DNA from: an uncultured delta proteobacterium
GTDB taxonomy: Bacteria > Desulfobacterota > Binatia > UBA9968
Assembly: GCA_963745035.1 (NCBI GenBank)
Contig: CAVUVW010000013.1
Coordinates: 704,001 to 768,000 of the forward strand
Length of the DNA stretch: 64,000 bases
Direction: 5' to 3'
This document shows, in pieces, positions 6,268 to 41,735 of the stretch; within the stretch, counting starts at the first letter, position 1; the number at the start of each line of letters is the position of its first letter. Made by a program: the position numbers and the translations under genes. The notes beneath the pieces were generated by a model, which was not told where the DNA came from, made no database searches, and saw only the letters and a list, made by a program, of their open reading frames with translations.

Positions 6268-7236
6268 ATGACTGATGGAATAAGATTTGCTGCCGTCCTG
6301 GTCACCAATTTCCGGGAGTTTTTGGTGCCCCTGCAAAACGACCTCCAATCGCCGCGGAGCCTGAGCCAGTCGAAATTGCCGCACAAGAGCAAAGGGGAAC
6401 TTGTTGCCCTCCCCGCCACTCCATCTTTTTCGCTCGACGAAGCCAGTACGATTGTCGAAATCGAGGTTCGGGCCGACCAACTTCTGAACTACATCGACAA
6501 GCTCACGTCTTTCGCCGACCGGGCTTGCAGCGCAGCGATTCGTCAGACTGAAACGGCCCATCGCATAGAAGATCGGTTCACTGAAATCGCCGATTTGCGC
6601 CGCACGCTCGAGCACCAGAACGCAAAGCTTCAAGAGCAGCAACTCGCCATGGTCCGCTTGGAGCAACAGTCGAAGGCGCAAATCACTGCCCTGGAAGTGC
6701 GGCTGCGCCAGAACGAAATGCAGCGAGCCGAAGAGAAACGACAGGACCTCTTGCGCGGCGAGAACGCCGGTCTCGTAAGCCGCCTCAAAGAAGCCGAAGC
6801 GCTCGTCCCACAAGTCCAAGAACGCAATCACGACTGGAGCGAACCGCTCGGTCAAGAGCTGGAAGCTCTGAAACTTCAATTGGCCGAACGAGACGAAACC
6901 ATTCAAGCCAAGAATGTCATGATCAAACAAATCGAGAGCGACTCACGCGCTAAGATCCTAGACATCGAGCAGCGCTTGCGCGACGCCGAGAAGGCACTCG
7001 AAGGTCATGAGGCGATACTGAAAGAAAAAGACGCCGTGATTCGAGCCACAGCCCTCAAAGAGGCGGAGATGGGCAACCTGATCAAACGTCTGTCCGCCGA
7101 ATGCGCCAAGCTCAACAACGAGCTTCAGGAACGAAACCGAGCCCTTTCCCAGAACCACGGCACCCGCGCAGAACCCCGCGCCGACGCCAACATTTGGCGT
7201 CGGGTGATCGGCCGCTTGCAAGAAGATCCGCAGTGA
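6268..7236 (+). CDS. Hypothetical long coiled-coil protein
   Basis: E/Q/L/K/R-rich heptad pattern over about 230 aa; start uncertain. Confidence 0.6.
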   Translation: MTDGIRFAAVLVTNFREFLVPLQNDLQSPRSLSQSKLPHKSKGELVALPATPSFSLDEASTIVEIEVRADQLLNYIDKLTSFADRACSAAIRQTETAHRIEDRFTEIADLRRTLEHQNAKLQEQQLAMVRLEQQSKAQITALEVRLRQNEMQRAEEKRQDLLRGENAGLVSRLKEAEALVPQVQERNHDWSEPLGQELEALKLQLAERDETIQAKNVMIKQIESDSRAKILDIEQRLRDAEKALEGHEAILKEKDAVIRATALKEAEMGNLIKRLSAECAKLNNELQERNRALSQNHGTRAEPRADANIWRRVIGRLQEDPQ

Positions 7237-7272
7237 AGAACAGTCGCATCAGTTTAGCTGGCTGTCAGTCCA

Positions 7273-8265
7273 TTAATCGAACATGCCGGCGCGATCGAGA
7301 CGCTCGACGAAAGACGAATCGATCAGCGACGCGACATTGATGTTCTTCGCCTTGGGATTGGATTCGGCGATCATTTCCAAAAGCAGCTTCATGGCGGCCG
7401 GGTCCGCATACGGCTTCTTGAGCATCATGTCTCGGTAGGTTTCGTAGCCTTCCTCGATCATCGCGCGATTTTTCTCCAACGGCAGCCGCAGATATTTGGC
7501 CAATATCCGCATGCTTTCCTCTTTGTTGGCCTTGTTCCGATTGAACTGCATCCCTTCGACCAGCGTCGTGACGAACCGCACAACCGTGGCGGAATCGTCG
7601 CGTAAAGTTTTCTCCGAGACCGCGACAATGTTGCGCAAATACGGCACGTCGAGCGGCGCCAGATCCACCAGCAGCCGGTAACCTTCCTTGGCGGCCATCG
7701 TGGTGTACGGCGGATCGAGAATGGCCGCGGCAACCCGATTGGCGAGCAGCGCCTCGAAGCGCGCGGTTTTGCCGCCGATATTGAGCGGCACGACTTGATC
7801 TCGGGACATACCGAGTTCCTTCAAGCTTAGCAGCAGCCCGGTGTATGGCAGGCCGGAAAAACCGGTGATCGCCACAGACTTGCCGCGTAGCTCGGCCGCG
7901 GAGCGGATCGATGGGTGAACGACCAGTGCGAGGTTCAAGCCGCGCGCCGTCCCCATGACCATCTTGACCGGGAACCCGCCAAGAGCGCTATGCACGACTT
8001 TGTCCGGCGACGTGAGATCGAACTGAATATCGCCCGATACCAGCGCGTTGATGTCGTTGCTGCGGCTGAATGTCACCATGCGCGTATCGAGATCGCGCTT
8101 CTTGAAAAATCCCTTTTCCTCGGCGATGTACGCCGGCAAGAACATCGCGCCGCGCACGCCCTCGCCAACGATGATCGTCTTGGTTTGCGCGCAAACGTCA
8201 CCGGCGAATGAGGCAACATATAGCGCGGCGGTGACCAAGCAATATGCAAATCGATTCATAACCAT
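7273..8265 (-). CDS. ABC transporter substrate-binding protein, NMT1/SsuA-like
   Basis: Signal peptide; PAYIAEEKGFF, ALVSGDIQF and ELRGKSVAI motifs. Confidence 0.85.
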   Translation of the reverse strand: MVMNRFAYCLVTAALYVASFAGDVCAQTKTIIVGEGVRGAMFLPAYIAEEKGFFKKRDLDTRMVTFSRSNDINALVSGDIQFDLTSPDKVVHSALGGFPVKMVMGTARGLNLALVVHPSIRSAAELRGKSVAITGFSGLPYTGLLLSLKELGMSRDQVVPLNIGGKTARFEALLANRVAAAILDPPYTTMAAKEGYRLLVDLAPLDVPYLRNIVAVSEKTLRDDSATVVRFVTTLVEGMQFNRNKANKEESMRILAKYLRLPLEKNRAMIEEGYETYRDMMLKKPYADPAAMKLLLEMIAESNPKAKNINVASLIDSSFVERLDRAGMFD

Positions 8266-8294
8266 TCTCCCCAGACTAACACCTCATTGGTCCA

Positions 8295-9903
8295 TCATTC
8301 CGATCTTTCCACTGCCACCGTCTGCAGGTGCGTCCCTGTGCGCCCCGGGATGTACGCGGATTTCGCGCCGGCACCGCCGGCGACAACGATCCAGATGTCT
8401 TCGGGACGATCCACGGCGCCGACTTCGCGCGCCGACTCGTTGTTGAACCACATCGGCCGGCGCTTCGAAAGCAGCTCGAGATTTTCGTCCGAGATCTTTT
8501 CATACGGGACTCGAGCCATGGCGAACAATTCCTGGCGGATGGCAGCCTTCGAATATCCCGCAGCCGCAAAGATAGCTGCGTGCTCCGGACAGACGACAAA
8601 GAGAACTTCGGTCGTCGTCACTCCGCTCGCCAGACCGCCGGCCATGGTCAGCGCGAAGGTTTTCAGCAGTCCTTTAGCGGTCTGACTCGCCATATCGACC
8701 GCGCTGTAAACCCCGCTGCAGCCGGTTACGTGCACCGTATCCATCGTTGCACGGCAACCGCGCTCGACATGCAATGGCTCCCAGGGATTCTCCTCCTCGT
8801 TTTCCCCAAAACAGAAAGTATATTTCGCGGGCTGGCCGACCGTCGATTTATCGAACTCGCCGGGAGCCGCGCCGCCGACGTTGGTCAGGGTCAAGCGCAA
8901 CGCTCTGCCGATGGTGGCGTTCGCGCGCCAGCCCTGGCCGAGCACGTTGGCGCCGCAGTTGAGTGTCCAGGCTCTTGCGGCAAGGACCGTTGACGATAAT
9001 CATCGGCGCGACGTTGCCGGTGGTGGTCTGCACGCCGTCAAGATTGAAGCCGGGCTTCAGCACACCTTTTACCGCGGCGACCACCAACGGAAAATATTCC
9101 GGCAAACATCCCGCCATCACCGCATTAGCGGCGATCTTTTCGACGCTCGCGACGCCGTTCAACGGCGGCAGCACACCGAGCACGAAATTTCCGTCCAAGC
9201 CACCGGCCGCGATCATTTCATCGACCGCCGCCCGTGTCGGCGGCAGCACCGGCAGACCGTCGCTCCAGCCGCGGCGTATCAGCTCTGCGAACAACGCGCC
9301 AGGATCGCTTGAAAGCTTGATCGCAGAATCCAAAGTCGGAACTCTGTCGCCGGACGCCTGCGCTGCGGGCCGGCTTTGACGGAGCAGATCGTTCACGATC
9401 GAATCGACCGTCGACTCCGCGAGCGCCTGCAATTGAACCAGTGAGATCGTCCCCACCGGATGCGGCACTTTCACCAACGGTAAATCTGCCATGCCGCGAT
9501 TCTGCGCTTCGGTTTGCGCCAGCTTGAGAAACTCCGTTGAAACCACCGTCGCGGTGGGTATGCCGGCGCCTTCGAGCTTGACCGAGTCGTGGATACTCCA
9601 CGACGTGCACGAACCTCAATCGGCGAACGCGTTGATCACCACATCGCAGCGACCGATCAGCTCCGGCAGGCACTCGGCTTCCGTGCGGCTCATCTTGCGC
9701 CTGGGCACCAGCTCGATATCGCTGTATCGCTGCGTGAGCAACGCGCCGATCCATTGAAGAAATTTGTCGGCATTGGGTTTGTTGTTGTCGAGCAAGCCGA
9801 CGCACAGTCCGTGGAGACTGCCGCCCCGGCGCTCCGCCACCCCGGTTCTCTTGCCGGCGCGCTGTCCGACCGGACTGATGATCTCAATAGTGTCCGCGCT
9901 CAT
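8295..9903 (-). CDS. UGSC-family selenoprotein fused to a large uncharacterised domain (GWSDGLPVLPPT type); in-frame TGA read as Sec at 9616-9618; one frameshift near 8965
   Basis: GGAGG plus ATG at 9903; reads NAFAD-TGA-GSCTSWSIHD in frame into ORF 8848..9546; continues in ORF 8295..8945 after an apparent 1-nt insertion. Confidence 0.8.
9586..9604 (-). promoter_or_regulatory. Putative bacterial SECIS hairpin
   Basis: mRNA GUCGUGGA-GUA-UCCACGAC: perfect 8-bp stem with G in the loop, starting 11 nt after the UGA. Confidence 0.7.
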
Positions 9904-10085
9904 TGACGCCTCCCGAAGCACGCGCCTGCACTACGTGCGGCGATGACTCGCAACATGGGTTTCACTCGGAATCTTGGGGCGCATGATGGTCAACTCTGGG
10001 CCCACAGTAGTCCCGTTGAACGCCGCCGCGCAAGGCTGATCGAGGCGAAATTAATTATGAAAAGAGTTGGCGAGGATTTTAGAGT

Positions 10086-13000
10086 TTAAATGCCGTCGAC
10101 GTTCGATGCGACCAAGCCCATCTGGTCGTCGGATTGACTCTTGTCGGCGGGCCGCGCCGCCGCTGAGCCTGCGCTGACCGGCAGATGCACGATAAACGTC
10201 GAGCCGCGTTCGAACTCGCTTTGCACCGCCACACGCCCGCCCAGCAGATCGACATATTTTCGCACGATATAAAGCCCCAGGCCGACGCCGCCAAACTTCC
10301 GCGTAGCGGAACTGTCCACCTGCTGAAACATGTCGAAAATGGTCTGGATCTTTTCCGCGGGGATGCCGATTCCGGTATCGGCGACTTTCAACTCGATCTC
10401 GTTGGTCGCGGCCAGGTGGCGGACGGAAATCGTCACCACGCCCCGATCGGTGAACTTGATCGCGTTGTTGACCAGATTTTGAAGCACCGCCTTCAACTTT
10501 TCGTCGTCCGTCGCCATCGACGGCAAGTCGGTCGCATATTCCCAAGCAATCGCCAGGTCCTTGCCGAAGGGGATGTTGTAGTTTCGCCGCAGCTCGTCGA
10601 GCAGGCCGACCAGGTCCACCGGCCGCGCGCTTGTCTGCACCGCGCCGGCCTCGATCCGGGTGACCTGCAACACGCCGCTGATCATGTGGAAGAGGTCCAT
10701 GGCCTGGCTGCTGATCGTTTCCAACGCTCTTTTCTGCTCCTCGCTCACGTGGCCGAGAATCCCCTGCATCATGATTTCAGTGTAGCCCTTGATGACGTTC
10801 AACGGCGTTCTCAGCTCGTGCGAGATGACGCCGAGAAACTCGTCTTTCCCTTGGCTGGCTCGCTCAAGCTCGATGGTCTTTTTCTGCAATTGCGCGAACA
10901 GCCGCGCGTTACCCGCCGCGACGCTGAGATGATAGGCGATGGCGTTAATCAGTTGGACCTCGCTGTCGGAAAAGTAATAGGGTTTGCGGCCGAGAAAATG
11001 CATCACTCCCAGTCCTTCGCCACGAACCTTTAACGGAATGAGAAACGAGCTGCGAAACCCCGCCTTGAACAAGTATTTGTTGTGCGCCAGTTTATCGTAG
11101 ACTGGATCGGAGGCCATGTCCTCCACGAACGCTGCCTTGCCGGTTTGGACCACCTTGCCTAATTGGCCCTCTCCGGCGCCGTAGCGGAACACGAGCTGGA
11201 CGCCCTCAGGCATGCCGCAGTGCGCGACCAGACGCAGGTCGCCGTTTTCTTCATCGCTCAAATAGATCCGCGCCGCGTCGAAGTCGAAAATCGCCAATAC
11301 CTTTACCATGGTTTGGCCGAGCACGGCGTCGATGTCCAGGGACTCGCCGGCGATCCCGGCAATCGAGTACAGCGCGGACAGCTCTTTAGCTTTGGCGGCG
11401 GTTTGAGAATAGAGCGTGGCGTTTTCGACCGCGATGCCGATTTGATGGGTCATCGACATCAGCAGGCGCGTCTCATGGGCCTGGAGTCGGCGCGCCTCGC
11501 GGCCGACAAATACCGCCACACCCCATGTCCTGAGCTTGGTCGCGACCGGAAAAGCCGCAAAGAAGCCGGCGCTCGTGGACTCGAGAATTTTGCTGTGACT
11601 GAGCTCCAAATAGCGCGGGTCGTTTCTGACGTCCTCGAAAACGAAAACCTCGCCGGTTTCCGCGGCTCGACCGACGATGCCCTGCCCGCGCTGGAAGCTA
11701 CCGAGCTTGGTCCACAGCTCGGGTTGCTCCTCGAAAACTGCGGCGACGCGCAGTTCGGTCATCTCGGCGTCAAAAAGAAAAATCCGCGTGGCGTCGAAAT
11801 GAAAAATCTCGGTGACCTTTTCTATCGCCGACCGTAGGGTCTCGGAGAGGTCCAAAGAGCGGGTCGCCGCAATCGTGAGCGCGTGCAAGGCCGAAAGCTC
11901 GCCGGCGCTCTGCCGCGTTTCGTCGTAGAGCATGGCGTTATGGATCGCGATGGCGGACTGTCCCGCCAGGGTGGTGAGGAATTCGATTTCTTCGTCGCTG
12001 AAGGAATGCTCCTCCTTGGTGAAGAAGGCGATGAGCCCGAGGAGCTGATTTTTCGCGACCAGGGGAATTCCGAGATACGAGACCAGCCCCCAGCGATGGG
12101 CGAAACGATGGTCGTCGCTGCGCGGGTCGGTCCGCAAGTTGGCAATGGTGAGAGGAATCTTGTTTTCGAGCACGATCTTGGCAAAACCATGCATCGGGCG
12201 CGGATTGCCCGTCCGCCACTCGCTCTCGCTGATATTGCGGCACGCCGCTGGCTCCAAGGTTCCCGTTTCCTTGTTGATCAGGCGGACGGTGGTCACGGCC
12301 CCGGGTAAGACCAGTTCGACTTTCTCGAGCAACAGATCGAGCATGGAGCGGAGGTCCAGGGTCGAAGTAATCGCCATTTCGATATCATGCAGCGCTTCGA
12401 GCCGCTGGAGGTTTCGTCCAAGCCGCTGGCCGGCGGCGACGGCCTCATCCCGCCGGGTTTCCAGCGTGGCGGCCATCCGGTCAAACGACGCGGCGACCCG
12501 TCCGATTTCATTACGATCGTGCGGCAATCCGGTGCGCGCGGCGAGATCCCCGGCGCCGAGCCGCTCGCTCGTGCTCACCAAAGTGCGCAGCGGCGCCAAT
12601 ACGAACGTGTCGCCGCCATACCAGGCAGCAATGAGCGCCAGCGCAGTCACAAGCAGCAGTGCTGCCAGATTGCGCCGCAACAACCAATCGGCGTCGGCCA
12701 AGGCAACGTCCGCCGGTATGCCGAGGCGCAGAAAAATCTGACCGTTGGCGGGAGTGTCGCCGATCGCTGTAAAGCCGTAGAACCGTTTCTTGCCGTCCAA
12801 CCCCGAGACTTCGGCAACACCTTCTTGCGCGGCGGCCGCCTTGCCGGTCCCCGCTTGCGGCCGATATTCGCCGATAGATGCCTCATCGTCGGGGTAACGG
12901 GCGAGCACGGTTCCATCGCGGTCATAGATCTCGAGAGAAGCATAACCGGGTAAGGCGGCGTTGCCGGCGATTTGCTTCAGATTGGCCACATCGAACGCGG

Positions 13001-13523
13001 CAAAAACCACTCCGATGACGCGCCCATCTTTTTCGATGATTGGATACCCTAGATTCAAGACGGCCTTGGCGACGATCGGTCCGGCCGGAAAGTTGTCGAT
13101 CGCCAGGCCCTTGTGTTTTATGGCGAGGCGAAAATGGCCGCGCTCCGCGATATCCACCTGCTGAGTCATCGGCAGCCCGCTGCAATACTGTCGCCCATGC
13201 ACATTCGCGGCGCCGAGATTGACGTAGAGCGGATATTCGGCCAGCAGATTCGCGAAAAGCGCGCTGCATGCCGGTTCATCTGGAGCACGCACCTCCCGCA
13301 GCAATGACAGCGCAACGAGAAGCTGGCGCGTGCCGTCGATCAGCCCCTTCTGACTTCCGGCGACGACGCGCGCCAGCCGCAGCGCTTCCCGTTTAGCGCG
13401 CTCGCTGTCTCGTACCCGTTGCTCGCCGGCGCTGTAGAGAATCAACGCGAGCGCCGGCAAGACAGCGAGCAGGACGAGGTGGATGAGCCGGGTGCGGAAA
13501 CTTGGTTGGGAAATTTTTTTCAT
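10086..13523 (-). CDS. Membrane sensor histidine kinase (Cache-like, HAMP, three GAF, HisKA, HATPase)
   Basis: Two TM segments, HAMP (NEIGRVAASFDRMA), three GAF repeats, SHELRTPL, NLVNNAIKFT, DTGIG and GVGLGL; likely start MKKISQ at 13523. Confidence 0.9.
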   Translation of the reverse strand: MKKISQPSFRTRLIHLVLLAVLPALALILYSAGEQRVRDSERAKREALRLARVVAGSQKGLIDGTRQLLVALSLLREVRAPDEPACSALFANLLAEYPLYVNLGAANVHGRQYCSGLPMTQQVDIAERGHFRLAIKHKGLAIDNFPAGPIVAKAVLNLGYPIIEKDGRVIGVVFAAFDVANLKQIAGNAALPGYASLEIYDRDGTVLARYPDDEASIGEYRPQAGTGKAAAAQEGVAEVSGLDGKKRFYGFTAIGDTPANGQIFLRLGIPADVALADADWLLRRNLAALLLVTALALIAAWYGGDTFVLAPLRTLVSTSERLGAGDLAARTGLPHDRNEIGRVAASFDRMAATLETRRDEAVAAGQRLGRNLQRLEALHDIEMAITSTLDLRSMLDLLLEKVELVLPGAVTTVRLINKETGTLEPAACRNISESEWRTGNPRPMHGFAKIVLENKIPLTIANLRTDPRSDDHRFAHRWGLVSYLGIPLVAKNQLLGLIAFFTKEEHSFSDEEIEFLTTLAGQSAIAIHNAMLYDETRQSAGELSALHALTIAATRSLDLSETLRSAIEKVTEIFHFDATRIFLFDAEMTELRVAAVFEEQPELWTKLGSFQRGQGIVGRAAETGEVFVFEDVRNDPRYLELSHSKILESTSAGFFAAFPVATKLRTWGVAVFVGREARRLQAHETRLLMSMTHQIGIAVENATLYSQTAAKAKELSALYSIAGIAGESLDIDAVLGQTMVKVLAIFDFDAARIYLSDEENGDLRLVAHCGMPEGVQLVFRYGAGEGQLGKVVQTGKAAFVEDMASDPVYDKLAHNKYLFKAGFRSSFLIPLKVRGEGLGVMHFLGRKPYYFSDSEVQLINAIAYHLSVAAGNARLFAQLQKKTIELERASQGKDEFLGVISHELRTPLNVIKGYTEIMMQGILGHVSEEQKRALETISSQAMDLFHMISGVLQVTRIEAGAVQTSARPVDLVGLLDELRRNYNIPFGKDLAIAWEYATDLPSMATDDEKLKAVLQNLVNNAIKFTDRGVVTISVRHLAATNEIELKVADTGIGIPAEKIQTIFDMFQQVDSSATRKFGGVGLGLYIVRKYVDLLGGRVAVQSEFERGSTFIVHLPVSAGSAAARPADKSQSDDQMGLVASNVDGI

Positions 13524-14063
13524 TCGCTTCAGCCTGCGATCGACGGTTGCAAGTCGCGCGGCAAAATCCGGTTGCCGGGCAAAAAATCTAGCAACCTCCG
13601 TAAGAACTTTCCGCGCGACGGCGCAAACGGCGAATTCGACCCGGTCTGACGCATTCTCGGTAACCAATCGTGACCGCTCCGGAACGAATTTTTGATCCTC
13701 GGCGATCGCCGTTCAATCCAAGGCTTGTGCCATGGGCTGGACGAGCGACAATGATGGATTTCCCCGCCAATTCCCGCCTCAGCCCACACGGGCGTGTTAC
13801 TTAACCTCCAAAAATTGGCAAATTGGAGCACATGTTGACACGAATGATCGCGACAACTCGCCTGCGGCGGGTAGAAGCCAAGTTGCTGTGTACACGCGCG
13901 CGCCCTTCAGGCTGATTTCCAGCTCGGGGCGAGATCGTCAGAGCACGCAAGCGCGATCTGCGAGCGCCAAGCCGATTGCTTACGAAATTTTCCTGCGAGT
14001 GTTAAATTGAGCAATTCCACTGGGAAATCGCCGCTCGCACTGTGACGCGCCGCGGAGACGCAA

Positions 14064-15846: not shown

Positions 15847-16842
15847 ATGACCATACATAACGCAACCCGTTTCTTTTACAGCTTTGCATGCGGGCTCATG
15901 TTGGCGGCCTGCGACGGACCGCAATCGGCGTTGGCGCCCGCCGGAGAGGCCGCCGAGCGCATCGCCGGACTTTTCTGGTGGATGACCGGGTTCGCCGCCG
16001 TGATATGGATCGCCGTTATCGTGTTGGCGCTGTATGCCGTCGGCTCGCCAGCGGAACGACACAACCGGCGACGCTCGAATGTCTTGATCGTCGGCGGCGG
16101 CGCAGTCGTGCCGACCATCGTCGTAGCCGTGCTGGCGATGTTCGGGTTGGCTCCGATACCTACTCTACTCGCTCCCGCGCCGGAGGGCAGTCTACGCATT
16201 ACCGTCTCGGGCGAACAATGGTGGTGGCGCGTGCAGTATCAACACGCAGAGGACGAGTCGGTAGTGCTGGCCAATGAAATCCGACTCCCCGTGGGTGAGC
16301 CGGTTGAGTTTCGTCTGGAAAGTCCCGATGTCATCCATTCATTTTGGATCCCATCCCTCGGCGGCAAAATCGACATGATCCCCGGGCGGGTCACGCGGCT
16401 TGCGTTGACGCCAACCAAAACCGGCGTGTTTCGCGGCGCGTGCGCCGAGTACTGCGGCACCGCCCATGCGTTGATGAATTTCACGGTCGTCGTCGAGGAG
16501 AAAGCGGCGTTCGATCGCTGGCTCGCCCATCAACGAACACCGGCATCGATTCCAAACGAACCCGTCGCGCTACGCGGCCACGAGCTTTTTCTCGCCAACG
16601 GCTGCGGAGCTTGCCACCAAATTCGCGGCACGCCCGCCAAGGGCGTGATCGGACCCGATTTAACCCACGTCGGCAGCCGGCTCAGCATCGGCGCTGGCAT
16701 GCTGCCGAACAATTCGGCAACACTCCTACGCTGGATCACTCGCACCGAAGAAGTGAAACCCGGCGTTCTCATGCCGTCGTTCAGCATGCTGCCCGATGAA
16801 GATTTAAAGGCGCTCGCAGTGTATATGGAAGCCCTCAAATGA
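15847..16842 (+). CDS. coxB: Cytochrome c oxidase subunit II with fused cytochrome c (caa3 type)
   Basis: Lipobox LAAC, QWWW, DVIHSF, CuA motif CAEYCGTAHALM and heme motif CGACH. Confidence 0.92.
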   Translation: MTIHNATRFFYSFACGLMLAACDGPQSALAPAGEAAERIAGLFWWMTGFAAVIWIAVIVLALYAVGSPAERHNRRRSNVLIVGGGAVVPTIVVAVLAMFGLAPIPTLLAPAPEGSLRITVSGEQWWWRVQYQHAEDESVVLANEIRLPVGEPVEFRLESPDVIHSFWIPSLGGKIDMIPGRVTRLALTPTKTGVFRGACAEYCGTAHALMNFTVVVEEKAAFDRWLAHQRTPASIPNEPVALRGHELFLANGCGACHQIRGTPAKGVIGPDLTHVGSRLSIGAGMLPNNSATLLRWITRTEEVKPGVLMPSFSMLPDEDLKALAVYMEALK

Positions 16843-19370
16843 AAGCGGATCGAGAGCCGCTTCCCGAAGCTCCGCCGGCGGAAATCCGCCGGGCACAAGC
16901 GGAGCGCTTGCTGAAGGTGTGGGAGACGCCGAGCGGCTTGCGCTACTGGTCTTCGGTCAACAACTCCGACGTCGGCGTTTGGTATACCGCCGCGACTTTC
17001 TTTTTCATGTTTTTCGGTGGCGCGCTGGCGCTGCTGATGCGCATCCAGCTCGCCCGGCCGAACAACGATTTTCTTTCCGCCGAGCTTTATAACCAGGCTT
17101 TCACCGTACACGGCTCGGTGATGATGTTTCTATTCGCGATTCCGATCTTCGAAGCGATCGCGGTTTTGTTTCTGCCGCAGATGCTCGGCGCCCGCGATCT
17201 GCCTTTTCCGCGCCTGTCCGCGTTCGGTTTCTGGTGTTTTCTGCTCGGCGGCGTTTTCTTGTGCGGCTCGATATTCTTCAACGCCGCGCCGCGCGGCGGC
17301 TGGTTCATGTATCCGCCGCTCACTTCGACCTACCAGACCGACATCGGCGCGGACATCTGGTTGCTCGGCTTTTCTTTTATTGAAATCGCCGCCATCGCCG
17401 CCGCTGTGGAAATGGTCGTGGGCTCACTCAAGACCCGCCCGCCGGGGATGCGGATCAACCTCGTGCCGCTCTACGTCTGGTACGTGCTCGTGGCGGCGGC
17501 GATGATCGTGTTCGCTTTTCCGCCGCTCATCACCGGCAGCATGCTGTTGGAAATCGAGCGCGCTTTTCATTGGCCGTTTTTCAATCCCGCAGGCGGCGGC
17601 GATCCGCTCCTGTGGCAGCATCTGTTCTGGCTGTTCGGCCATCCGGAAGTGTACATCATCTTTCTGCCTTCGGTGGCACTGATCGCGATGATCGTGCCCA
17701 CGTTCGCGCGCCGGCCCATCGTCGGCTATAGCTGGATCGTGCTGGCCGCGGTGGGCGTCGGATTCCTTAGCTTCGGCCTCTGGGTGCATCACATGTTCAC
17801 CACCGGCTTGCCCGGCATCACCTTGGGCTTGTTCGCGACCGCATCGAAGGCGATCGCACTTCCCACCGGCATCCAGATTTTCTGCTTTATTGCGACCCTG
17901 GCGGCTGGACGAGTAGTGCGCTCGACCGCCATGCTTTATGCCTTCGGCAGCCTGGTGATCTTCGTCCTCGGCGGACTGACCGGCGTCATGGTCGCCGTGG
18001 CGCCATTCAATTTTCAATCGCACGATACGTTTTTTATCGTTGCACATCTGCATTACGTGCTCATCGGCGGCGCGCTCTTTCCCATTCTCGCCGGCTGCTA
18101 TTACTACTATCCGCTCGTCACCGGCAAAATGCTCAGCGACAAACTGGGAAAGATCGCCTTCTGGCTTGCGTTCGTCGGCTTCAACGTCGCGTTCCTGCCC
18201 ATGCACTGGACCGGCCTGCGAGGCATGCCGCGGCGCGTCTTCACGTATCCTGCCGGGATTGGCTTCGACACATTAAACCTTATCTCCACGATCGGCGCTT
18301 TCATCCTCGCAGCGGGACTTGTAGTGGTTCTCTGGGACATGGTCCGGCCCAAGCGAAAGCAGCCGCATGCGAAGCGCAATCCTTGGGACGCCGGCACCAT
18401 CGATTGGGTGCAAGAGATGCCCGGCCAACCTTGGGGTATTCGCTCCATCCCGGAGATCGACAGCCGCTACCCGCTGTGGGACCAGCCCAATTTCATGCGC
18501 GACATCGACGAGGGGCGTTTCTTCCTGCCGGATGCCGAGGAAGGAAGGCGCGAAACGATTATCACTTCGGTCATTGACGCCGAACCGCAACAATGCCAGC
18601 GGCTGCCCAGTTCGTCGTTTATAACCATGTGGGCCGCGCTCACCACTGGCGGCTTTTTTATTTTCGGCACATTTCATTGGTGGTGGCCCGCGCTCGCGAG
18701 CCTCGTGATCGCACTCGCCGTGATCATTTACTGGCTCTGGACGGGAACCGCCCTCATACCCGAGAAGGAAGACGAAGTTCGTCGGACTCGGCTTGACCTT
18801 GCCGCTCTACGTCTCGGGCCGCAGTCGGTCGGCTGGTGGGCGATGTTCATCACGATGCTGGCGATCCTGGCGGCGTTCGTTTCGCTCATCTTCGGTTATT
18901 TCTTTTTCTGGACCGTGCGCGCTGATTTTCCCCCGAAGCCGTTTCCCGGGCCGGGGCTTTTCTGGCCGCTTGTCGGCGCGGCACTGATACTCACCGCGTG
19001 GTCGCTAACGTTGCTCGCGCGGCGATGGAATCGTTCCGACAACTCCTATCTATTCTACTCCGGATCTCTTATTGCAGTTGCGGCGGGATTGGCCGGAGCG
19101 GCGGCGCTGATCGCGGCGCCCTGGGTTAGCGATCTCGACCCGAAGAGCCACGTCTATCCCGCAATGGTGTGGCTGATCATGATCTGGACCGCCGGTCAAA
19201 TTGGGGTGGGATCGATCATGCAGCTTTATTGCATCGCGCGCAGGTTGGCGGGTCGCATGACTGCGCGCTACGACATCGATATTCACAACGTCGCGCTCTA
19301 TTGGCACTTCACCGCATTCACCGCGGTGATCGCGGTGGCGGTCATCACCGGATTTCCGCTGGCGGCATAA
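16839..19370 (+). CDS. ctaD: Cytochrome c oxidase subunit I with C-terminal subunit-III-like extension
   Basis: HGSVMMF, GHPEVY, VHHMF, AHLHYV and GMPRR; C-terminal LYWHF. A probable compensating indel pair at about 18770-18820 puts LTLPLYVSG in another frame. Confidence 0.92.
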   Translation: MKADREPLPEAPPAEIRRAQAERLLKVWETPSGLRYWSSVNNSDVGVWYTAATFFFMFFGGALALLMRIQLARPNNDFLSAELYNQAFTVHGSVMMFLFAIPIFEAIAVLFLPQMLGARDLPFPRLSAFGFWCFLLGGVFLCGSIFFNAAPRGGWFMYPPLTSTYQTDIGADIWLLGFSFIEIAAIAAAVEMVVGSLKTRPPGMRINLVPLYVWYVLVAAAMIVFAFPPLITGSMLLEIERAFHWPFFNPAGGGDPLLWQHLFWLFGHPEVYIIFLPSVALIAMIVPTFARRPIVGYSWIVLAAVGVGFLSFGLWVHHMFTTGLPGITLGLFATASKAIALPTGIQIFCFIATLAAGRVVRSTAMLYAFGSLVIFVLGGLTGVMVAVAPFNFQSHDTFFIVAHLHYVLIGGALFPILAGCYYYYPLVTGKMLSDKLGKIAFWLAFVGFNVAFLPMHWTGLRGMPRRVFTYPAGIGFDTLNLISTIGAFILAAGLVVVLWDMVRPKRKQPHAKRNPWDAGTIDWVQEMPGQPWGIRSIPEIDSRYPLWDQPNFMRDIDEGRFFLPDAEEGRRETIITSVIDAEPQQCQRLPSSSFITMWAALTTGGFFIFGTFHWWWPALASLVIALAVIIYWLWTGTALIPEKEDEVRRTRLDLAALRLGPQSVGWWAMFITMLAILAAFVSLIFGYFFFWTVRADFPPKPFPGPGLFWPLVGAALILTAWSLTLLARRWNRSDNSYLFYSGSLIAVAAGLAGAAALIAAPWVSDLDPKSHVYPAMVWLIMIWTAGQIGVGSIMQLYCIARRLAGRMTARYDIDIHNVALYWHFTAFTAVIAVAVITGFPLAA

Positions 19371-19411
19371 AAACAATTTTAAGAAAACAGCGTCGCGCGA
19401 GCGAATACCTG

Positions 19412-19795
19412 ATGGCGACAACTTATCTGTCCGAGCAAAATGAAAGTCTACTGTTCATGGTCGCCGGCCCGATCACTTGGGCCGCGCACTTCTTGCTTTC
19501 CTACGGCACCGCCGCAATCTGGTGCGCCAAGGTCGTTGGACCCGGAGGTTCACTCGCCACCGTTCGCATGGCGATCTTTTTCTACTCGTTGGCGGCGCTT
19601 GTCATCGTCGGGGTCGTTGGCTGGATCGGCAAACGCCGGCACAGTTACGGAGTGGCCGAATTGCCGCACGACGACGACACGCCCGAAGATCGTCATCGCT
19701 TCCTGGGATTTGCCACGCTGCTCCTGTCAGCGTTGAGCGGCGTGGCGATCATTTATGAAGCGCTCGTCATTGTTTTTATCGACCGGTGTACCTGA
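19412..19795 (+). CDS. Small membrane protein of the cox operon
   Basis: Three hydrophobic segments (WAAHFLLSYG...RFLGFATLL). Confidence 0.7.
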   Translation: MATTYLSEQNESLLFMVAGPITWAAHFLLSYGTAAIWCAKVVGPGGSLATVRMAIFFYSLAALVIVGVVGWIGKRRHSYGVAELPHDDDTPEDRHRFLGFATLLLSALSGVAIIYEALVIVFIDRCT

Positions 19796-20436
19796 TGCGC
19801 CGCGTAAGTTTTTTGCTGGGACTCATCACGCTTGCCGCCGCCTGGCTCGGGCCGCTGCCGGTGTTGGCGCGGGAATTTTTCTCCGCGCACATGACGATGC
19901 ACATGGCGGTGGTCGCGGTGGCCTCGCCGCTGCTGGCACTCGCGCTCGGCGGAGGGCCGTTCGATCCCGCGCGCAAAGCGCCGCATTGGTTTGCGCCGAT
20001 CCAGGCTTCCATGGCGGAGCTTGTCGTAGTCTGGGCTTGGCATGCGCCCGCGCTCCATCATGCGGCGCGCCATCACGGCGCAGCGCTCATCGCCGAGCAG
20101 GGAATGTTTTTCGCCGCCGGCCTTTTCCTTTGGCTGTCCGCTTTTGGCGGCGATGATGGCGCCGCTGGAAAGCGCAGCGCCGCGGGAATCGTCGGACTTC
20201 TGCTCACTGCCATGCACATGACTTTGCTCGGCGCGCTTCTCGCGCTTTCGCCGCGCCCGCTTTATGCACATTTTCAGGAACGTGCAACTGGATTCGCCGC
20301 CCTTACGCCGCTCGACGATCAACATCTCGGCGGCGCGATCATGCTCGTCGTCGGCGGCGCCTCCTACCTCGCCGGCGGTCTTTGGCTGACCCTCCGGCTT
20401 TTGCGCGGACCTTCATTCGTGCCGAGGCGTTCATGA
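19786..20436 (+). CDS. Cytochrome c oxidase assembly factor, caa3-type CtaG family
   Basis: FSAHMTMHM, WAWHAP and DQHLGGAIM motifs. Confidence 0.8.
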   Translation: MYLMRRVSFLLGLITLAAAWLGPLPVLAREFFSAHMTMHMAVVAVASPLLALALGGGPFDPARKAPHWFAPIQASMAELVVVWAWHAPALHHAARHHGAALIAEQGMFFAAGLFLWLSAFGGDDGAAGKRSAAGIVGLLLTAMHMTLLGALLALSPRPLYAHFQERATGFAALTPLDDQHLGGAIMLVVGGASYLAGGLWLTLRLLRGPSFVPRRS

Positions 20437-21679
20437 GCCGCATGCTGAGAAATATTTTCTTAGTCGGGATTTTCGGCGCGGCCACGCTGCGCGCGCTGGT
20501 GCGCTCCCTTCGGCCGCACATCTGAAGGGGCAAGTAAGACGCATCCCCATCGCAACGGCGCGCACGGCAACGCCAAACGCGCCGCATGGACGATCGCGGC
20601 GTTTCTCGCCGTTGTCGTTGTCGGTGGCCTACTAACGGTCGTCGGCGGGCTCGTACCGATCAAAGCCAGCTCGGGCCATTGGACCATCACGGCGGCGCTG
20701 TTGAACTTTACCATGCGCCGGTCTGTGATCATGCACTCGCTGGGAATCGAAACGCCGCCGCTCAACGACCGCGCGCTTGTCTTGAAAGGAGCAGGCCATT
20801 ACGAAATCGGCTGTAGTCCCTGCCATGGCAGTCCGGCGCTGCGCCAACCGGTTATCGTCCTGGCGATGACCCCACATCCGCCGGAGCTTTCCAAAGAAAT
20901 CCCCAAGTGGCGCCCCCGGGAGCTTTTCTACATTGTAAAGCACGGCGTGAAATTCACCGGCATGCCGGCGTGGCCGGCGCAGGAACGCGATGACGAAGTC
21001 TGGGCGATGGTGGCGTTTCTCCGCACGTTGCCGAAGCTCAGCGCCGCTGAATATCAACGCTTGATCCGCGACGATGCCGGGACCACAGGCGCCAATGCCA
21101 CCACTGGAATTCTATCGCGCACAACCGATGTTGCTCGCCTGGTGAACGACAACTGCTCGATGTGTCACGGCAGCGAGGGCGACGGTCGCGATTCGAGCGC
21201 CTTTCCGAAAATTGCCGGGCAAAAGCCCAACTACTTCTATCTGAGTATGCAAGCTTATGCGCGCGGTCAACGGAACAGCGGCATCATGGAGCCGATTGCC
21301 GCAGGCGCTGCATCCCGAGATCATGCGCGACCTCGCCCGCTACTACGCCGAGCGCAAACAGTCAAATCCCTCCGCGCGGAAATCACATGACGCCGCGGCG
21401 ATCGCGCGCGGCAAGCAGATCGCGGGACACGGCATTCCGAGCCAACGCGTGCCTATCTGTGCTGAGTGTCACGGTCCGGGCCCCGATCCCCGAAACCCGA
21501 ATTATCCCGAGCTTGCCGGACAATACGCCGAGTATCTGGTATTGCAGCTCACGCTTTTCAAAAACCAGCAGCGCGGCGGCACCGCGAATGCGCACCTTAT
21601 GCGCCGGGTCGCGCACGGACTAACCGCCGAGCAGATGAGGGACGTGGCGAGTTATTACGAGTCCCTGCCGTCAAGCTAG
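20433..21679 (+). CDS. Membrane-anchored tri-heme c-type cytochrome (c4-like), frameshifted near 20500 and 21300
   Basis: CSPCH, CSMCH and CAECH across ORFs 20701..21390 and 21257..21679; an N-terminal TM segment is in frame upstream of 20701; start inferred from the ATGA overlap. Confidence 0.75.
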
Positions 21680-21715: not shown

Positions 21716-22501
21716 TCAATACAATTCGCCTTCGCCCTTTTTCTCCTCCCTAGGCCTCCAGCGCAAAAGGTAGTTTTCGGCGCGGTCGATCGCTTCGTTG
21801 CAGATAACGACGACGAGCGCGAGGATGAGAATTCCACCCAGCGCGCCGGTGGTCGAGAACAGCGACGTGTTGTGGTTGATAAGATAGCCCAGCCCCTTGC
21901 TTGCGGCGATGAATTCGCCGACCACGGCGGCGACAATGGCGTAAGGCAGGCTGATCTTCAAACCCGTGGTGATCCAAGGCACGATCGCCGGCAAGGTAAC
22001 CTTCATCAGAATCTGCCGTTCGGTGGCGCCCATGATGCGCAGGATATTTTTCAGCTCCGCGTCCACGCCCTTGACGCCGGCGTAGGTGTTGAAGAAGGTC
22101 AAGAAGAACACCACGCTGATGACGAGAATGACTTTGGAGGTCGGCCCGATGCCGAACCAGATGATGAACAGCGGCGCCAGCGCGATGCGCGGTATGCCGT
22201 TGAAAGCGACGACATAGGGATCGAGGATCTGCGCCAGCATTTCACGCCGGCCGAGAGCGAAGCCCAAGCCGATCCCGAAAAGCGCGCCGATGAAAAACCC
22301 GGCGAAGGTTTCGTAAAGCGTGATGCCGAGATGGCCGAAGATCGAGCCGTCCGCGAAGACTTCGTAAATATAGACAAACACCTTGGACGGGCTCGATACC
22401 CAGAAAGGATCGATCAATCTTCCTGAGCTGAACTCCCAGAACGCCAGGAGCAGCAGACCGAAGATCAGCCGGTAGACAAACAGTCGTCCGCGGCCGATCA
22501 T
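21716..22501 (-). CDS. ABC transporter permease, SsuC/TauC type
   Basis: PRIALAPLFIIWFG and VVGEFIAASKGLG motifs. Confidence 0.9.
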   Translation of the reverse strand: MIGRGRLFVYRLIFGLLLLAFWEFSSGRLIDPFWVSSPSKVFVYIYEVFADGSIFGHLGITLYETFAGFFIGALFGIGLGFALGRREMLAQILDPYVVAFNGIPRIALAPLFIIWFGIGPTSKVILVISVVFFLTFFNTYAGVKGVDAELKNILRIMGATERQILMKVTLPAIVPWITTGLKISLPYAIVAAVVGEFIAASKGLGYLINHNTSLFSTTGALGGILILALVVVICNEAIDRAENYLLRWRPREEKKGEGELY

Positions 22502-23511
22502 TTGCCCAGGAACTCGTTGGTGACCAGCTCGGCGTAGGACGTGCGCTTCTTCAAGATTCCCGCCTGTTCCAGTATGTCCTGGGTCACTTGAAAGCTTCGC
22601 TCCGTGGTGCGGCCGTCCGGGCTAAGCGCCGGCAGCACGGCGGCGGCGCCGGACAGGAGCAACTCCGGCGGTGTTTTTCCCAGCGCCGGCTTCAGCGCCT
22701 CGGCGAGCTGCTCGGGCGTGCTCTTGAGCGCCCATTGATTGGCCCGCACCAGCGCGCGCACCATGCGCCGCACTAAATCCGGATCCTTGGCCACCGTCTC
22801 GGGACGCGCGACGAGATTCTCCATGAGGAATTCCGGTATCGAGGGATCCTCGCCTTTCGCATTATTGATGAACATGATCGCAAAGCCGCGGCTGATCGCC
22901 GTTTCCGGCACCGGCGGCGCAGTCAGAGCGACGTCCACTTTGCGATTCTCGAGAGCGGCGAGCCAGGTCGGTCCGGCTCCGATGGGAATGATCTGCACGT
23001 CTTGCTGCGGCGTGTAGCCGGCTTTGCGAATGACAAACGCGGCGAGATGCGCTGTCAGAGCGCCGGGGTTGGTGACGCCAACGGTCAATCCCTTGAGCAA
23101 TTTGATCTTGTCGGCGAGCGGCATGGATTCGCTGACGTTCTTCGCCTTGGCCGCTTCGCGGTGCATCGCCCAATTGATAAAAACTTTGTTGAGGCCGCTC
23201 ATGACCATCAGCAGACGTTTCCCCTCTTGGTGCGCGAGGATCACGTTGTCGCCGGTGGTGAAGCTGAATTCCACGTCGCCGGCGATGAGCGCCCGGATGT
23301 CGGGTCCGCCGCCGCCCGTCGACGTGATATCCGGATCGAGCTTCTCATCGGCAAAAAAGCCCCTGCTCTGGGCAACGTAAACCGGCGTCATCGAGTGCGC
23401 CACGACGGGAATCGTCATTTTCACCTTGCGCGGCGCTTGCGCGCCCGCGGGCGTCGCGCACCAGGCAATGGAGCAACTTATTGCGAGGACGATTCGCATG
23501 AACGGTCTCAT
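22498..23511 (-). CDS. ABC transporter substrate-binding protein, NMT1/SsuA-like
   Basis: Own RBS (AAGGAG) and signal peptide MRPFMRIVLAIS...AGA; forms the C-terminal part of the 603-aa ORF. Confidence 0.85.
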   Translation of the reverse strand: MRPFMRIVLAISCSIAWCATPAGAQAPRKVKMTIPVVAHSMTPVYVAQSRGFFADEKLDPDITSTGGGGPDIRALIAGDVEFSFTTGDNVILAHQEGKRLLMVMSGLNKVFINWAMHREAAKAKNVSESMPLADKIKLLKGLTVGVTNPGALTAHLAAFVIRKAGYTPQQDVQIIPIGAGPTWLAALENRKVDVALTAPPVPETAISRGFAIMFINNAKGEDPSIPEFLMENLVARPETVAKDPDLVRRMVRALVRANQWALKSTPEQLAEALKPALGKTPPELLLSGAAAVLPALSPDGRTTERSFQVTQDILEQAGILKKRTSYAELVTNEFLGK

Positions 23512-23525
23512 GGAAAGTCTCCTTT

Positions 23526-24303
23526 CTACGCTTCTGTCAATTTTACTTCCGGGCGGAGTTCCTGCCACAACCTCTCGTAGGACGAATGAAACTCCGGGCT
23601 GTCGTGGATCTGAAACACGTCCCGCGGCCGTGGAATGGCCACTTGTTCGATGAACTTGATCCGCCCCGGCCGCGAGGACATGAGCACCACCCGATCCGCC
23701 AGCGCAATCGCTTCGATCAAGTCGTGAGTAATGAAGATGATCGTTTTCTTGGATGCCGACCAGAGTTTCAAAAGCTGGTCCTGCAATACGATGCGCGTCT
23801 GCGCGTCGAGCGGGCCGAACGGCTCGTCCATCAAGATCAGCTCGGGATCGTAGATCAACGTGCGGATGATATTGGCGCGCTGGCGCATGCCGCCGGAAAG
23901 CTCGTGCGGGTAATGCTCCTCGAAGCCGCTCAATCCGACTCGTTCGATGATATTCGCGCGCCCGCGCTCTGCGCTCGGCGCCATCGACGCCTCTGATTTC
24001 CAGCGCGATCCCGACGTTCTCGACTAACGTGCGCCACGGCAGAAGATTGTCCTTTTGGGTGACGTAGCCGATCTTCGTGCAGATTCCCTCGATCGGCGCG
24101 CCGTGAAAACTGATCCGGCCGCTGCTTGCGCGCAGCAGGCCCACTATCAAGTTCAGCATCGTCGATTTGCCGCACCCCGATGGACCGACGATGGTGACGA
24201 ACTCGCCTTCGGCGATGTCGAGATTGATCGAGTCTAGGGCGACAACTCTGCGGCCGCGCGCGAAGTATTCTTTACCGACGCCCTCGATGGACAGCAATGC
24301 CAC
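23526..24303 (-). CDS. ABC transporter ATP-binding protein, SsuB/TauB type, frameshifted near 23955
   Basis: Walker A GPSGCGKS in one frame; LSGGMRQR and LMDEPF in ORF 23526..23984. Confidence 0.85.
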
Positions 24304-24311
24304 AAACAAAC

Positions 24312-25307
24312 CTACGGCGTGATCCGCGCGATCGAGGCGCCGATGCCGTCGAGCGCGGTTTTGCCGTTGGCGTCCATGTTATCGCGCCGCGGTGTGTCGA
24401 AGTTCGCGACATAGCCCGTGTCACCGACAAAAACGATTGCCGACGGAAATTCGAGCGGCCCTTGGCCGCTGTTTTTGGCCACTTCCCGGACCGTCCCATC
24501 CGGCGTGACTGTGAGCAACGCGTTGCGCTCGTTGGCCGTCACCCACAGATTCCCGCTTCGATCGAAAGCCAATCCGTCAGCGCCTTCCAGCAGCGGACTC
24601 TGGGCAAGCAGTAACGGCTTGCCGCCCTTGCCATCGGACCCTATCTCTACTTTCCAAACCGCGCCGCGCGATGTGTCGGCGACGTGGAGCACGCCGTTAC
24701 GGTCGATCTCCAGACCATTCGCAGTGATCGCCTGCTGGGTCTTGCCGTCCGGAAGCGTGCGAGAATTCTTATCGATTTGGACCGCCTGCTGCGCAGCACC
24801 GCCATTTGCCCCTACCCGGTAAACAATTCCGCTGCCGCCGCCGGACACGAAAAGATTTCCTTGTCGGTCAAAGACGATACCGTTGGCTCCCGGCGTGCCG
24901 GTTGCGAATGTTTGCGCCGATCCCGGCTTGCCAGGATTGAGTTCGCTTGCCCTGATGTGCACGACTTCGGCAAACGGGCCCACCGCGACAAAAAGATCGC
25001 CCTGCGGGTTGAAGGCTATGCCCGACGGTTCGGCGTTGACTTTCTTGCCTTTGATTTCCCGCGCCTCGATCCGGCCGACCACTGTCGGTTTGGGCGACTT
25101 GGGATCGACTCGAAGAATGTTACCCGTCACACGATCGGGAAGATAAAGCATACCGTTTCGGTCGGCGGCGATGCTTTCGACGATCACGGTCCGGTCCGCG
25201 CTCACCGGGTCGAGATCAACGAGTACCGAAGGCGCCGACCTTCCAGCCTGCATGGTGGAGCAAGCGCCGAGAACCAGAGCGAGCACAAGTATCAGGAAGA
25301 CTTTCAT
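24312..25307 (-). CDS. SMP-30/gluconolactonase/LRE family beta-propeller lipoprotein
   Basis: Lipobox LGAC; repeated NGIVFD, NGLEID and DGLAFD blades. Confidence 0.8.
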   Translation of the reverse strand: MKVFLILVLALVLGACSTMQAGRSAPSVLVDLDPVSADRTVIVESIAADRNGMLYLPDRVTGNILRVDPKSPKPTVVGRIEAREIKGKKVNAEPSGIAFNPQGDLFVAVGPFAEVVHIRASELNPGKPGSAQTFATGTPGANGIVFDRQGNLFVSGGGSGIVYRVGANGGAAQQAVQIDKNSRTLPDGKTQQAITANGLEIDRNGVLHVADTSRGAVWKVEIGSDGKGGKPLLLAQSPLLEGADGLAFDRSGNLWVTANERNALLTVTPDGTVREVAKNSGQGPLEFPSAIVFVGDTGYVANFDTPRRDNMDANGKTALDGIGASIARITP

Positions 25308-37248: not shown

Positions 37249-37320
37249 CAAAAAACTCCTTCGCGGGGATAATATCGGTCGCTACCGGTGACTGCAAGAG
37301 CGAGCGGCGAAGCGCGGGTC

Positions 37321-41733: not shown

Positions 41734-41735
41734 GA

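Follow-up and report, generated by a model that had tools for sequence, protein, structure and literature searches.

A frameshifted UGSC-family gene with an in-frame TGA very probably encodes a two-domain selenoprotein

A 64,000-nt stretch of contig CAVUVW010000013.1 (positions 704,001 to 768,000), from an uncultured delta proteobacterium, is the window analysed here, and all coordinates below are those of this window. Its minus strand holds, from 9903 to 8295, what is very probably a single gene for a two-domain selenoprotein of the UGSC family, of about 535 residues once its frame is intact. By alignment, the conserved xxD-U-G-S-C motif of this family holds the in-frame TGA at 9618-9616, and comparison with relatives makes it very likely that the gene genuinely codes for selenocysteine (Sec, U) at this codon. 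The Sec reading is favoured because the product scores as a family member, because Sec and Cys alternate at this position, because a covarying hairpin fitting the model of the bacterial Sec insertion sequence (SECIS) follows the codon, and because TGA is otherwise used as a stop.

The 101-residue open reading frame (ORF) at 9921..9616 (-) stops at this TGA. Past it, the frame is open for 23 codons (9615-9547), which read GSCTSWSIHDSVKLEGAGIPTAT, down to the GTG at 9546 that opens the ORF 9546..8848. With the TGA read as Sec, the junction becomes ...VVINAFAD-U-GSCTSWSIHDSVKLEGAGIPTAT, so that the motif AFAD-U-G-S-C occupies residues 92-99, U being residue 96 when numbering begins at the ATG at 9903. 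An initial annotation of this DNA had described the 101-residue ORF, the open frame and the join after 23 codons, all of which are borne out by translation. The junction it placed at the ORF 9546..8848 stands; beyond what it described, the gene does not end with that ORF, and the coding sequence resumes in the ORF 8945..8295. Its reading of the product as a UGSC protein holds as well, with the qualification that a fusion of two domains and about 535 residues is found instead of a small UGSC protein, and that this copy is frameshifted.

The read-through product matches both models of the family over almost their whole length. It scores 137.3 bits against NCBIfam NF041046 'UGSC family (seleno)protein' (profile positions 2-146 of 147; curated cut-off, 125 bits) and 157.6 bits against Pfam PF24696 'UGSC' (residues 7-173, profile positions 1-170 of 172; cut-off, 25 bits). 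Taken by itself, the 101-residue ORF reaches 36.3 and 54.5 bits, respectively, and covers the first half of the profiles; the TGA thus lies midway in one known domain. The cut-off of NF041046 is cleared by the read-through product only. Profile matching places this product in the UGSC family, which is indeed, as had been supposed, a recognised selenoprotein family without assigned function, according to the two models and to the UGSC passages of PMC1976440 and PMC2398784.

When one genome per species was scanned, at least 599 stretches matched; 566 of them proved to be relatives, and the 80 best were retained as loci (L001-L080). A single same-frame tblastn alignment spans the codon aligned with the TGA in every one of them. 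This codon is TGA in 72 loci, the 18 closest (L001-L018) included, TGC in six, TGT in one and GGC (Gly) in one; L031 is an example of a natural Cys form. From the TGA to the earliest codon at which translation could restart, the 23 intervening codons stay conserved in frame across all 80 loci. TGA is found in Binatia-like 'delta proteobacterium' metagenome-assembled genomes (MAGs), Thermodesulfobacteriota, Dehalococcoidia, Spirochaetota and others, as well as in Bacillaceae isolates (Robertmurraya, Neobacillus, Bacillus yapensis) and in Alpha- and Betaproteobacteria. The initial annotation had put the TGA at the Sec/Cys position of a UxxC motif. The distribution of 72 TGA, seven Cys and one Gly codons agrees with this, as does the covarying hairpin described below: homologues do carry Cys at the aligned position, in seven loci, and they do not end there, the alignment running across the codon throughout.

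Were the TGA an ordinary stop, a protein of 95-101 residues ending in ...AFAD would be followed by a separate gene starting from a GTG or an ATG. Public gene calls are drawn in this way, no stop codon is used more often in the window than TGA, and no Sec machinery was seen there. Against these points, the pieces each make up half of a single Pfam/NCBIfam domain and the curated cut-off is cleared by their joined product alone, the post-TGA codons are conserved in frame in all 80 loci with Cys in seven, and a covariation-supported hairpin follows the TGA in TGA loci only. An ordinary stop is, on this evidence, highly improbable. An organism-wide code in which TGA specifies an amino acid (table 4 or 25), with no Sec involved, has a practically negligible chance of being correct. 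A Gly codon (GGC) at the site in one homologue could be cited for it, but TGA terminates 16 of the 36 Pfam-supported ORFs in the window, this gene included. Many homologous genes in the related loci, from other taxa, likewise terminate at TGA, and these loci span many phyla with the standard code.

The evidence for Sec insertion also comes from the RNA downstream of the codon. The hairpin GUCGUGGA-GUA-UCCACGAC (9604-9586) starts 11 nt past the TGA and has 8 base pairs (bp). Its folding energy is -12.5 kcal/mol (z = -3.66), and none of 200 shuffled sequences folds as well. In the bacterial SECIS (bSECIS) model, as the corresponding passage of PMC13188914 gives it, the loop has 3-9 nt, the stem 4-16 bp, the distance from UGA to loop is 16-37 nt and the minimum free energy (MFE) is at most -7.5 kcal/mol; one of the first two loop positions holds a G, after which G or U is usual. 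The 8-bp stem, the GUA loop, the 19 nt from UGA to loop and the energy all lie within these bounds.

Covariation was assessed on a gap-free alignment of the window and the 72 TGA loci, that is 73 sequences. Standard pairs fill 92.6% of the cells, changes on both sides are seen at six of the eight pairs, and the covariation score is reached by none of 500 shuffles. When the register is shifted by 1-3 columns, pairing drops to 20-49%. Three loci (L058, L059, L069) encode other amino acids here and still retain a stem of 6 bp, in which two pairs are flipped from G-C to C-G. The number of pairs formed separates the two kinds of loci: seven or eight of eight in 65 of the 72 TGA loci, the window itself having all eight, and only four to six in each of the eight non-TGA loci, from which, judged by this pairing, the SECIS-type hairpin is absent. 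A variant hairpin is seen in Dehalococcoidia (L040, L042-L047, L049-L056, L061, L063), with a 7-bp stem GUCGUGG/CUACGAC and a CUUGU loop without G in its first two positions; its fit to the bSECIS model is poorer, and the TGA is retained in all these loci.

The hairpin also bears on the idea that a Cys codon (TGC/TGT) was misread in sequencing or has recently mutated to TGA, in which case the gene would encode an ordinary Cys form or a freshly truncated protein. The assembly is error-prone, and Cys forms account for seven of the 80 loci and for 32 of the 43 full-length database representatives discussed below. Yet the errors seen in the window are indels and not substitutions, the loci L001-L018 all have TGA, and the window has the complete eight-pair hairpin that Cys forms lack. 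We give this explanation very little credence.

Several observations weigh against the Sec reading. The hairpin lies inside conserved coding sequence, and part of the covariation signal may be compositional, because some of the G-C to A-U changes follow low-GC genomes (Bacillaceae). No Rfam SECIS family was matched, either at gathering thresholds on the window or at permissive thresholds on 9500-9700, where chance snoRNA-type matches only were obtained. The genes selA, selB, selC (tRNA-Sec) and selD were not found in the 64-kb window: ARAGORN gave no tRNA and Rfam at gathering thresholds no match over its whole length, and Pfam detected no SelA, SelB or SelD domain in the 59 window ORFs of at least 150 residues. 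A scan for in-frame TGA codons with at least 60 open codons on each flank returned 67 candidates in the window, none of which is a second convincing gene of this kind. Coding-like GC content at third codon positions on both flanks is restricted to the UGSC gene and the ilvB/ilvN junction, and the latter was rejected as a selenoprotein candidate, being two adjacent genes. The frameshift at 8960-8965, considered below, could also be real.

At the edge of the window, a truncated ORF (2-886, -) matches PF09338 'Glycine/sarcosine/betaine reductase component B subunits' over profile positions 1-279 of 426. The glycine/sarcosine/betaine reductase of PF09338 is a system that uses selenoproteins in clostridia. 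A PF09338 gene was found near the UGSC gene in none of the 80 related loci.

The layout of the gene is as follows, with the basis of each assignment in brackets.

9909..9914, minus strand: Shine-Dalgarno-like GGGAGG, 5 nt upstream of the start codon (read from the sequence).
9901..9903, minus strand: probable start ATG (MSADTIEI...) (homologues in related loci begin at the equivalent Met).
9385..9885, minus strand: UGSC domain, residues 7-173 with the TGA read through (PF24696 and NF041046 matches).
9616..9618, minus strand: in-frame TGA, proposed Sec codon (residue 96) of the U-G-S-C motif (aligned codon TGA in 72 of 80 loci).
9586..9604, minus strand: SECIS-type hairpin, 8-bp stem (9604-9597 with 9593-9586) and loop GUA (9596-9594) (folding and covariation).
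8965..9318, minus strand: C-terminal domain, first part (GWSDGLPVLPPT..., MAGC), in frame with ATG 9903 (alignment with P0001).
8960..8965, minus strand: frameshift site, with one base more than the closest homologue (alignment with P0001).
8298..8960, minus strand: C-terminal domain, second part (NCGANVLGQGWRANATIGRAL..., FCFGENEE, PEH), in the shifted frame (P0001 residues 191-416).
8295..8297, minus strand: terminal stop TGA of the gene (ORF list).
7273..8265, minus strand: gene for an NMT1/THI5-like solute-binding protein, beginning 30 nt past the stop (PF09084).

An alternative start in the ORF list is the GTG at 9921, upstream of the ATG. The ATG at 9903 is the likely start, because homologues begin there and GGGAGG precedes it by 5 nt.

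Beyond the UGSC domain, which ends at residue 173, a short linker leads to a conserved domain of about 340 residues, hereafter the C-domain, with the motifs GWSDGLPVLPPT..., MAGC, QTTTGN, FCxxENEE and PEH. No sequence match to it was found in Pfam (E up to 10), in NCBIfam or in the PDB (phmmer and profile searches), and the ESM Atlas returned nothing but unnamed or automatically named clusters. The UGSC domain is thus fused to a conserved domain of about 340 residues without family.

The frame of this C-domain is broken in the window. In the closest database protein, P0001, residues 1-194 align with 9546..8965 in frame -2 (93% identity) and residues 191-416 with 8975..8298 in frame -3, from about 8960 (91% identity). 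For D-I-N of P0001 the window has 'gac actc aac', with four bases standing for one codon, and this extra base between 8965 and 8960 divides the C-domain between the ORFs 9546..8848 and 8945..8295. Most likely, the frameshift is an assembly error and not the mark of a dead gene, because other genes of the window are split likewise and because the related MAG loci L010, L011 and L016 have their frames broken at other positions. At least four genes besides the UGSC gene are spread across frames, namely leuC, asd, an ABC ATPase and a CoA-transferase, and the window assembly looks indel-rich. These frame-broken genes lie at 22501-24378, 27857-29033, 35851-37281 and 40887-41841, all on the minus strand. 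The leuC gene (aconitase family) is in at least four pieces (profile positions 1-64, 81-281, 284-381 and 372-463), asd and the family III CoA-transferase are in two pieces each, and so is the ABC ATPase, which appears falsely fused to an NMT1 domain.

If the extra base were real, the gene would be a pseudogene whose translation ends out of frame at 8848, after some 350 residues. The frameshift is indeed present in the sequence as given, and its site is not a long homopolymer. On the other side, the two halves are 91-93% identical to an intact homologue and have no further stops or gaps relative to it, the broken window genes include the essential leuC and asd, which points to assembly indel errors, and the related MAG loci are not broken at the same positions. 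A pseudogene is unlikely. A programmed +1 frameshift at 8960-8965 was considered and rejected, since intact homologues read straight through and the related broken loci are broken elsewhere.

The consequences of the probable Sec codon are visible well outside this window. With the 313-residue read-through product as query, the best 120 database proteins all begin after U, at query positions 97-161. With the 541-residue intact homologue of L001, the best 120 all cover 80% or less of the query, with lengths of 346-447 residues. The UGSC domain as query matches fragments of 96-129 residues that end in ...NAFAD and are stored as separate proteins, together with Cys forms of about 200 residues, one of which is named 'UGSC family (seleno)protein' by NCBI. 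Mis-splitting at the TGA is systematic in public protein data. That gene callers split this gene had been anticipated in the initial annotation, and the post-Sec starts of the best 120 proteins and the separately filed ...NAFAD pieces match that expectation.

Among the 80 loci, the two domains are fused in one frame of 484-667 codons in 47, the gene is frameshifted in three and it runs off the contig in one. The other 29 have a UGSC ORF of 172-344 codons with a C-domain gene directly behind. Of the split loci displayed, 23 of 24 have the C-domain ORF in the same frame as the UGSC ORF, 6-40 codons past a TAA, TAG or TGA (L014, L015, L018, L021, L024, L025, L028, L032, L033, L039, L048, L057, L058, L060, L062, L064, L068, L070, L072, L074, L077, L079, L080). 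This same-frame pattern within the best 80 is probably a ranking bias, because one long tblastn alignment scores best.

A wider view was given by a profile search of 1.84 billion cluster representatives, the profile including the UGSC domain besides the C-domain. It detected 11,870 proteins at E <= 1e-3 and 2,793 at E <= 1e-30. The two-module family comprises thousands of 50%-identity clusters, in Binatia-like bacteria, Dehalococcoidia, Bacillaceae, Alpha- and Betaproteobacteria and Actinomycetota. The best 150 representatives divide into 43 full-length proteins, 55 that begin just past U, 51 with the C-domain only and one other. The residue at the U position of the 43 full-length proteins is Cys in 32 and another residue in 11 (P0279, P0281, P0286, P0303, P0312, P0327, P0346, P0347, P0353, P0387, P0394). 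The locus L071 is a further fused member of this kind, and the residues found at U in such members are S, I, T, G, N, L and H. Going by the aligned residue, the N-terminal domain of these members cannot be a UxxC redox centre.

Other arrangements of the two domains exist. In four proteins the order is permuted, the C-domain being followed by a UGSC match to profile positions 2-92 and by an end in ...GD right before U; these proteins are cut at the Sec codon. In P0358, a pyridine-nucleotide-disulfide oxidoreductase module (Pyr_redox_2, CAVC), of thioredoxin-reductase-like flavoprotein type, is attached to the C-domain. P0403 carries the ferredoxin:thioredoxin reductase catalytic chain (FeThRed_B) fused to UGSC and C-domain. 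P0292, P0321 and P0323 (713-741 residues) each have two profile-matching stretches and no Pfam domain, and may contain tandem C-domains or a fusion to another uncharacterised domain.

Structural insights were obtained from a predicted model of the intact L001 homologue, which was built from 46 aligned sequences and is 71% identical to the window protein (best tblastn segment). The model has a mean predicted local distance difference test score (pLDDT) of 90.5 and a predicted template modelling score (pTM) of 0.91, with a disordered linker at 180-193. As this pTM is high for two domains, they are inferred to be held in a defined mutual arrangement in the predicted protein. The N-terminal domain is modelled as an alternation of strands (E) and helices (H): E34-39, H45-60, E64-69, H79-85, E88-94, H97-112, E117-122 and H123-135. 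U96 stands between strand 88-94 and helix 97-112. Foldseek against the PDB relates this domain to flavodoxins, receiver domains and lumazine synthase, with template modelling (TM) scores of 0.42-0.58 normalised to the target; thioredoxin folds are absent from the listed matches of this predicted homologue model. The C-domain modelled alone has a pLDDT of 90.0, and its Foldseek matches are weak: class I fumarate hydratase 7xky_A (E 1.3e-4, TM 0.25-0.29) and cyclic amide hydrolase 5hy4_A (E 1.2e-3). Kinship of the C-domain with class I fumarate hydratase was rejected in view of a best TM of 0.31, a root-mean-square deviation (rmsd) of 14-18 A and the lack of any sequence match in the PDB or Pfam. 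An Fe-S hydro-lyase was set aside too, the C-domain having two conserved Cys for the three ligands of a 4Fe-4S cluster.

Only four Cys/Sec columns are conserved across the protein, namely 96 (U or C in 35 of 36), 99 (32 of 36), 269 (45 of 46) and 367 (46 of 46). Considered as a candidate four-ligand metal or Fe-S site, this set is often incomplete in the wider family, one of the four being missing.

From these elements, a mechanism can be proposed. The hairpin at 9604-9586, with G and U in its loop, would recruit SelB with Sec-tRNA(Sec), so that UGA is read as Sec. In the flavodoxin-like alpha/beta domain that the model predicts, U96 would then be placed where a beta-strand gives way to the start of a helix, and C99 one turn after it. 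Placement of Sec or Cys residues three positions apart at a strand-to-helix junction is the usual geometry of UxxC/CxxC redox pairs. U96 and C99 may alternate between selenol/thiol and selenenylsulfide, and the pair could serve the C-domain through its two conserved Cys, those of MAGC and FCxxENEE. Electrons might reach U96/C99 from proteins resembling thioredoxin reductase or ferredoxin:thioredoxin reductase, and the likely setting would be the uptake and catabolism of organic acids. Such a redox relay between UGSC and C-domain is a possible function, which we put forward tentatively. A broader proposal is that of a two-module selenoenzyme, with UGSC and a catalytic C-domain of unsolved fold fed by modules resembling thioredoxin reductase or ferredoxin:thioredoxin reductase; it would perform a reductive step in the catabolism of organic acids or CoA esters, as a functional analogue, outside clostridia, of the glycine and proline reductases. 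This broader proposal is speculative and rather doubtful.

A redox function has several points against it. The redox pair is not essential everywhere, because 11 of the 43 full-length representatives have neither Cys nor Sec at the U position. The reductase fusions P0358 and P0403 are single proteins among 150, and a convincing solved relative of the C-domain was not found by Foldseek against the PDB (best TM 0.31). The joint loss of Cys96 and C269 in the alignment is a hint of the order of a weak trend, C269 being lost alongside Cys96 in 4 of 11 rows vs 3 of 34, with rows that are not independent.

The genomic surroundings provide the context of this proposed setting. The window is syntenic with L001, with a histidine kinase, a dienelactone hydrolase and other genes in common. 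The gene for the NMT1/THI5-like solute-binding protein is found beside the UGSC gene in 10 of the 80 loci by tblastn (L001, L003-L011), and is thereby conserved as a neighbour within the closest clade. Neighbours in 13 diverse loci include TctC/TctA, TRAP or ABC uptake components, acyl-CoA synthetases and dehydrogenases, CoA-transferases, PrpD, PrpR-type regulators, DUF6282 and amidohydrolases; a thioredoxin-reductase-like gene is a neighbour in one of the 13. A scan of 7100-10150 for promoters and terminators gave nothing beyond shuffled expectation. Directly upstream of the UGSC gene lies a histidine kinase of 1193 residues with HAMP and triple GAF domains (10086-13667, -), syntenic in L001. 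Past the solute-binding protein gene, an ORF of 322 residues without Pfam family (6268-7236, +) is also syntenic in L001 and has relatives in six of the 80 loci. Farther away lies a cytochrome c oxidase cluster (15847-21390, +) made up of COX1, COX2 carrying a cytochrome c domain, a dihaem cytochrome c and a CtaG-type assembly factor; it indicates that the host lives aerobically or microaerobically.

In terms of annotation, a single gene of about 535 codons appears as three ORFs because of a Sec codon and a probable assembly indel. Fusion, adjacency and permutation tie the UGSC domain firmly to a partner domain; its links to disulfide-reductase modules and to neighbourhoods of organic-acid catabolism are looser. 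Cultured Bacillaceae with the fused Sec form, such as the Neobacillus niacini and Robertmurraya homologues at L027, L026 and L030, are usable for experiments. If the two-module selenoenzyme were confirmed, the permuted, split and reductase-fused architectures would give a first concrete lead to what one of the most abundant 'orphan' selenoprotein families does.

Comparison with known systems starts with other selenoproteins that carry UxxC or CxxU redox motifs, namely the thioredoxin-, peroxiredoxin-, glutaredoxin- and DsbA-like proteins and selenoprotein B of glycine and proline reductases. In common with them, the UGSC protein has Sec and Cys three residues apart at a strand-to-helix junction, and its neighbours and fusions point to electron transfer of the thiol-disulfide type; the comparison is one of working mode only. 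Unlike them, it has no thioredoxin-fold match among the listed Foldseek results and no Pfam match to GRDB or thioredoxin families, and does not appear to be a member of these groups. The prototype of the bacterial SECIS is that of E. coli fdhF. The hairpin of the UGSC gene resembles bacterial SECIS elements, as modelled by the bSECISearch consensus, in being located in the coding region just past UGA, in having G then U at the opening of a small apical loop, and in its 19-nt distance and MFE below -7.5. It differs in having a family-specific sequence, which no Rfam SECIS model matches, and in the Dehalococcoidia subgroup with CUUGU loop and 7-bp stem. For the C-domain, the class I (Fe-S) fumarate hydratase alpha subunit and the 'Toblerone-fold' cyclic amide hydrolases are the best Foldseek matches, but TM values of 0.19-0.31, an rmsd of 12-18 A, about 10% identity and no sequence match make this a resemblance at most.

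The closest known system is the UGSC family itself. The relevant passage of PMC1976440 reports a UGSC-containing protein among selenoproteins without known function. In the Global Ocean Sampling (GOS) metagenome, UGSC was then described among the most abundant families, with 255 Sec vs 21 Cys forms, in the corresponding part of PMC2398784. Reviews list the family under NF041046 without function, in the entries of PMC9312934 and PMC13188914 that concern it, and the UGSC passages of these two and of PMC1976440 and PMC2398784 assign no function. The gene described here shares with the UGSC family of Zhang and Gladyshev the full-length domain, the xD-U-G-S-C motif, the alternation of Sec and Cys and a SECIS directly after UGA. 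It differs in its architecture: the family models have 147-172 positions and many members have about 170-215 residues, whereas here the domain makes up the N-terminal third of some 535 residues. The description of UGSC as 'likely Trx-like', in the part of PMC2398784 that treats it, contrasts with the flavodoxin-like N-terminal domain of the present model. A 'UGSC/Unknown_1' fusion was also reported from the GOS metagenome (PMC2398784, text and Figure S1A legend); in resemblance to it, the C-domain, a candidate for 'Unknown_1', is here also seen alone, in 51 of the best 150 cluster representatives. The UGSC family and a UGSC fusion have thus been known since 2007-2008, and the present locus is another member, decoded in the known way.

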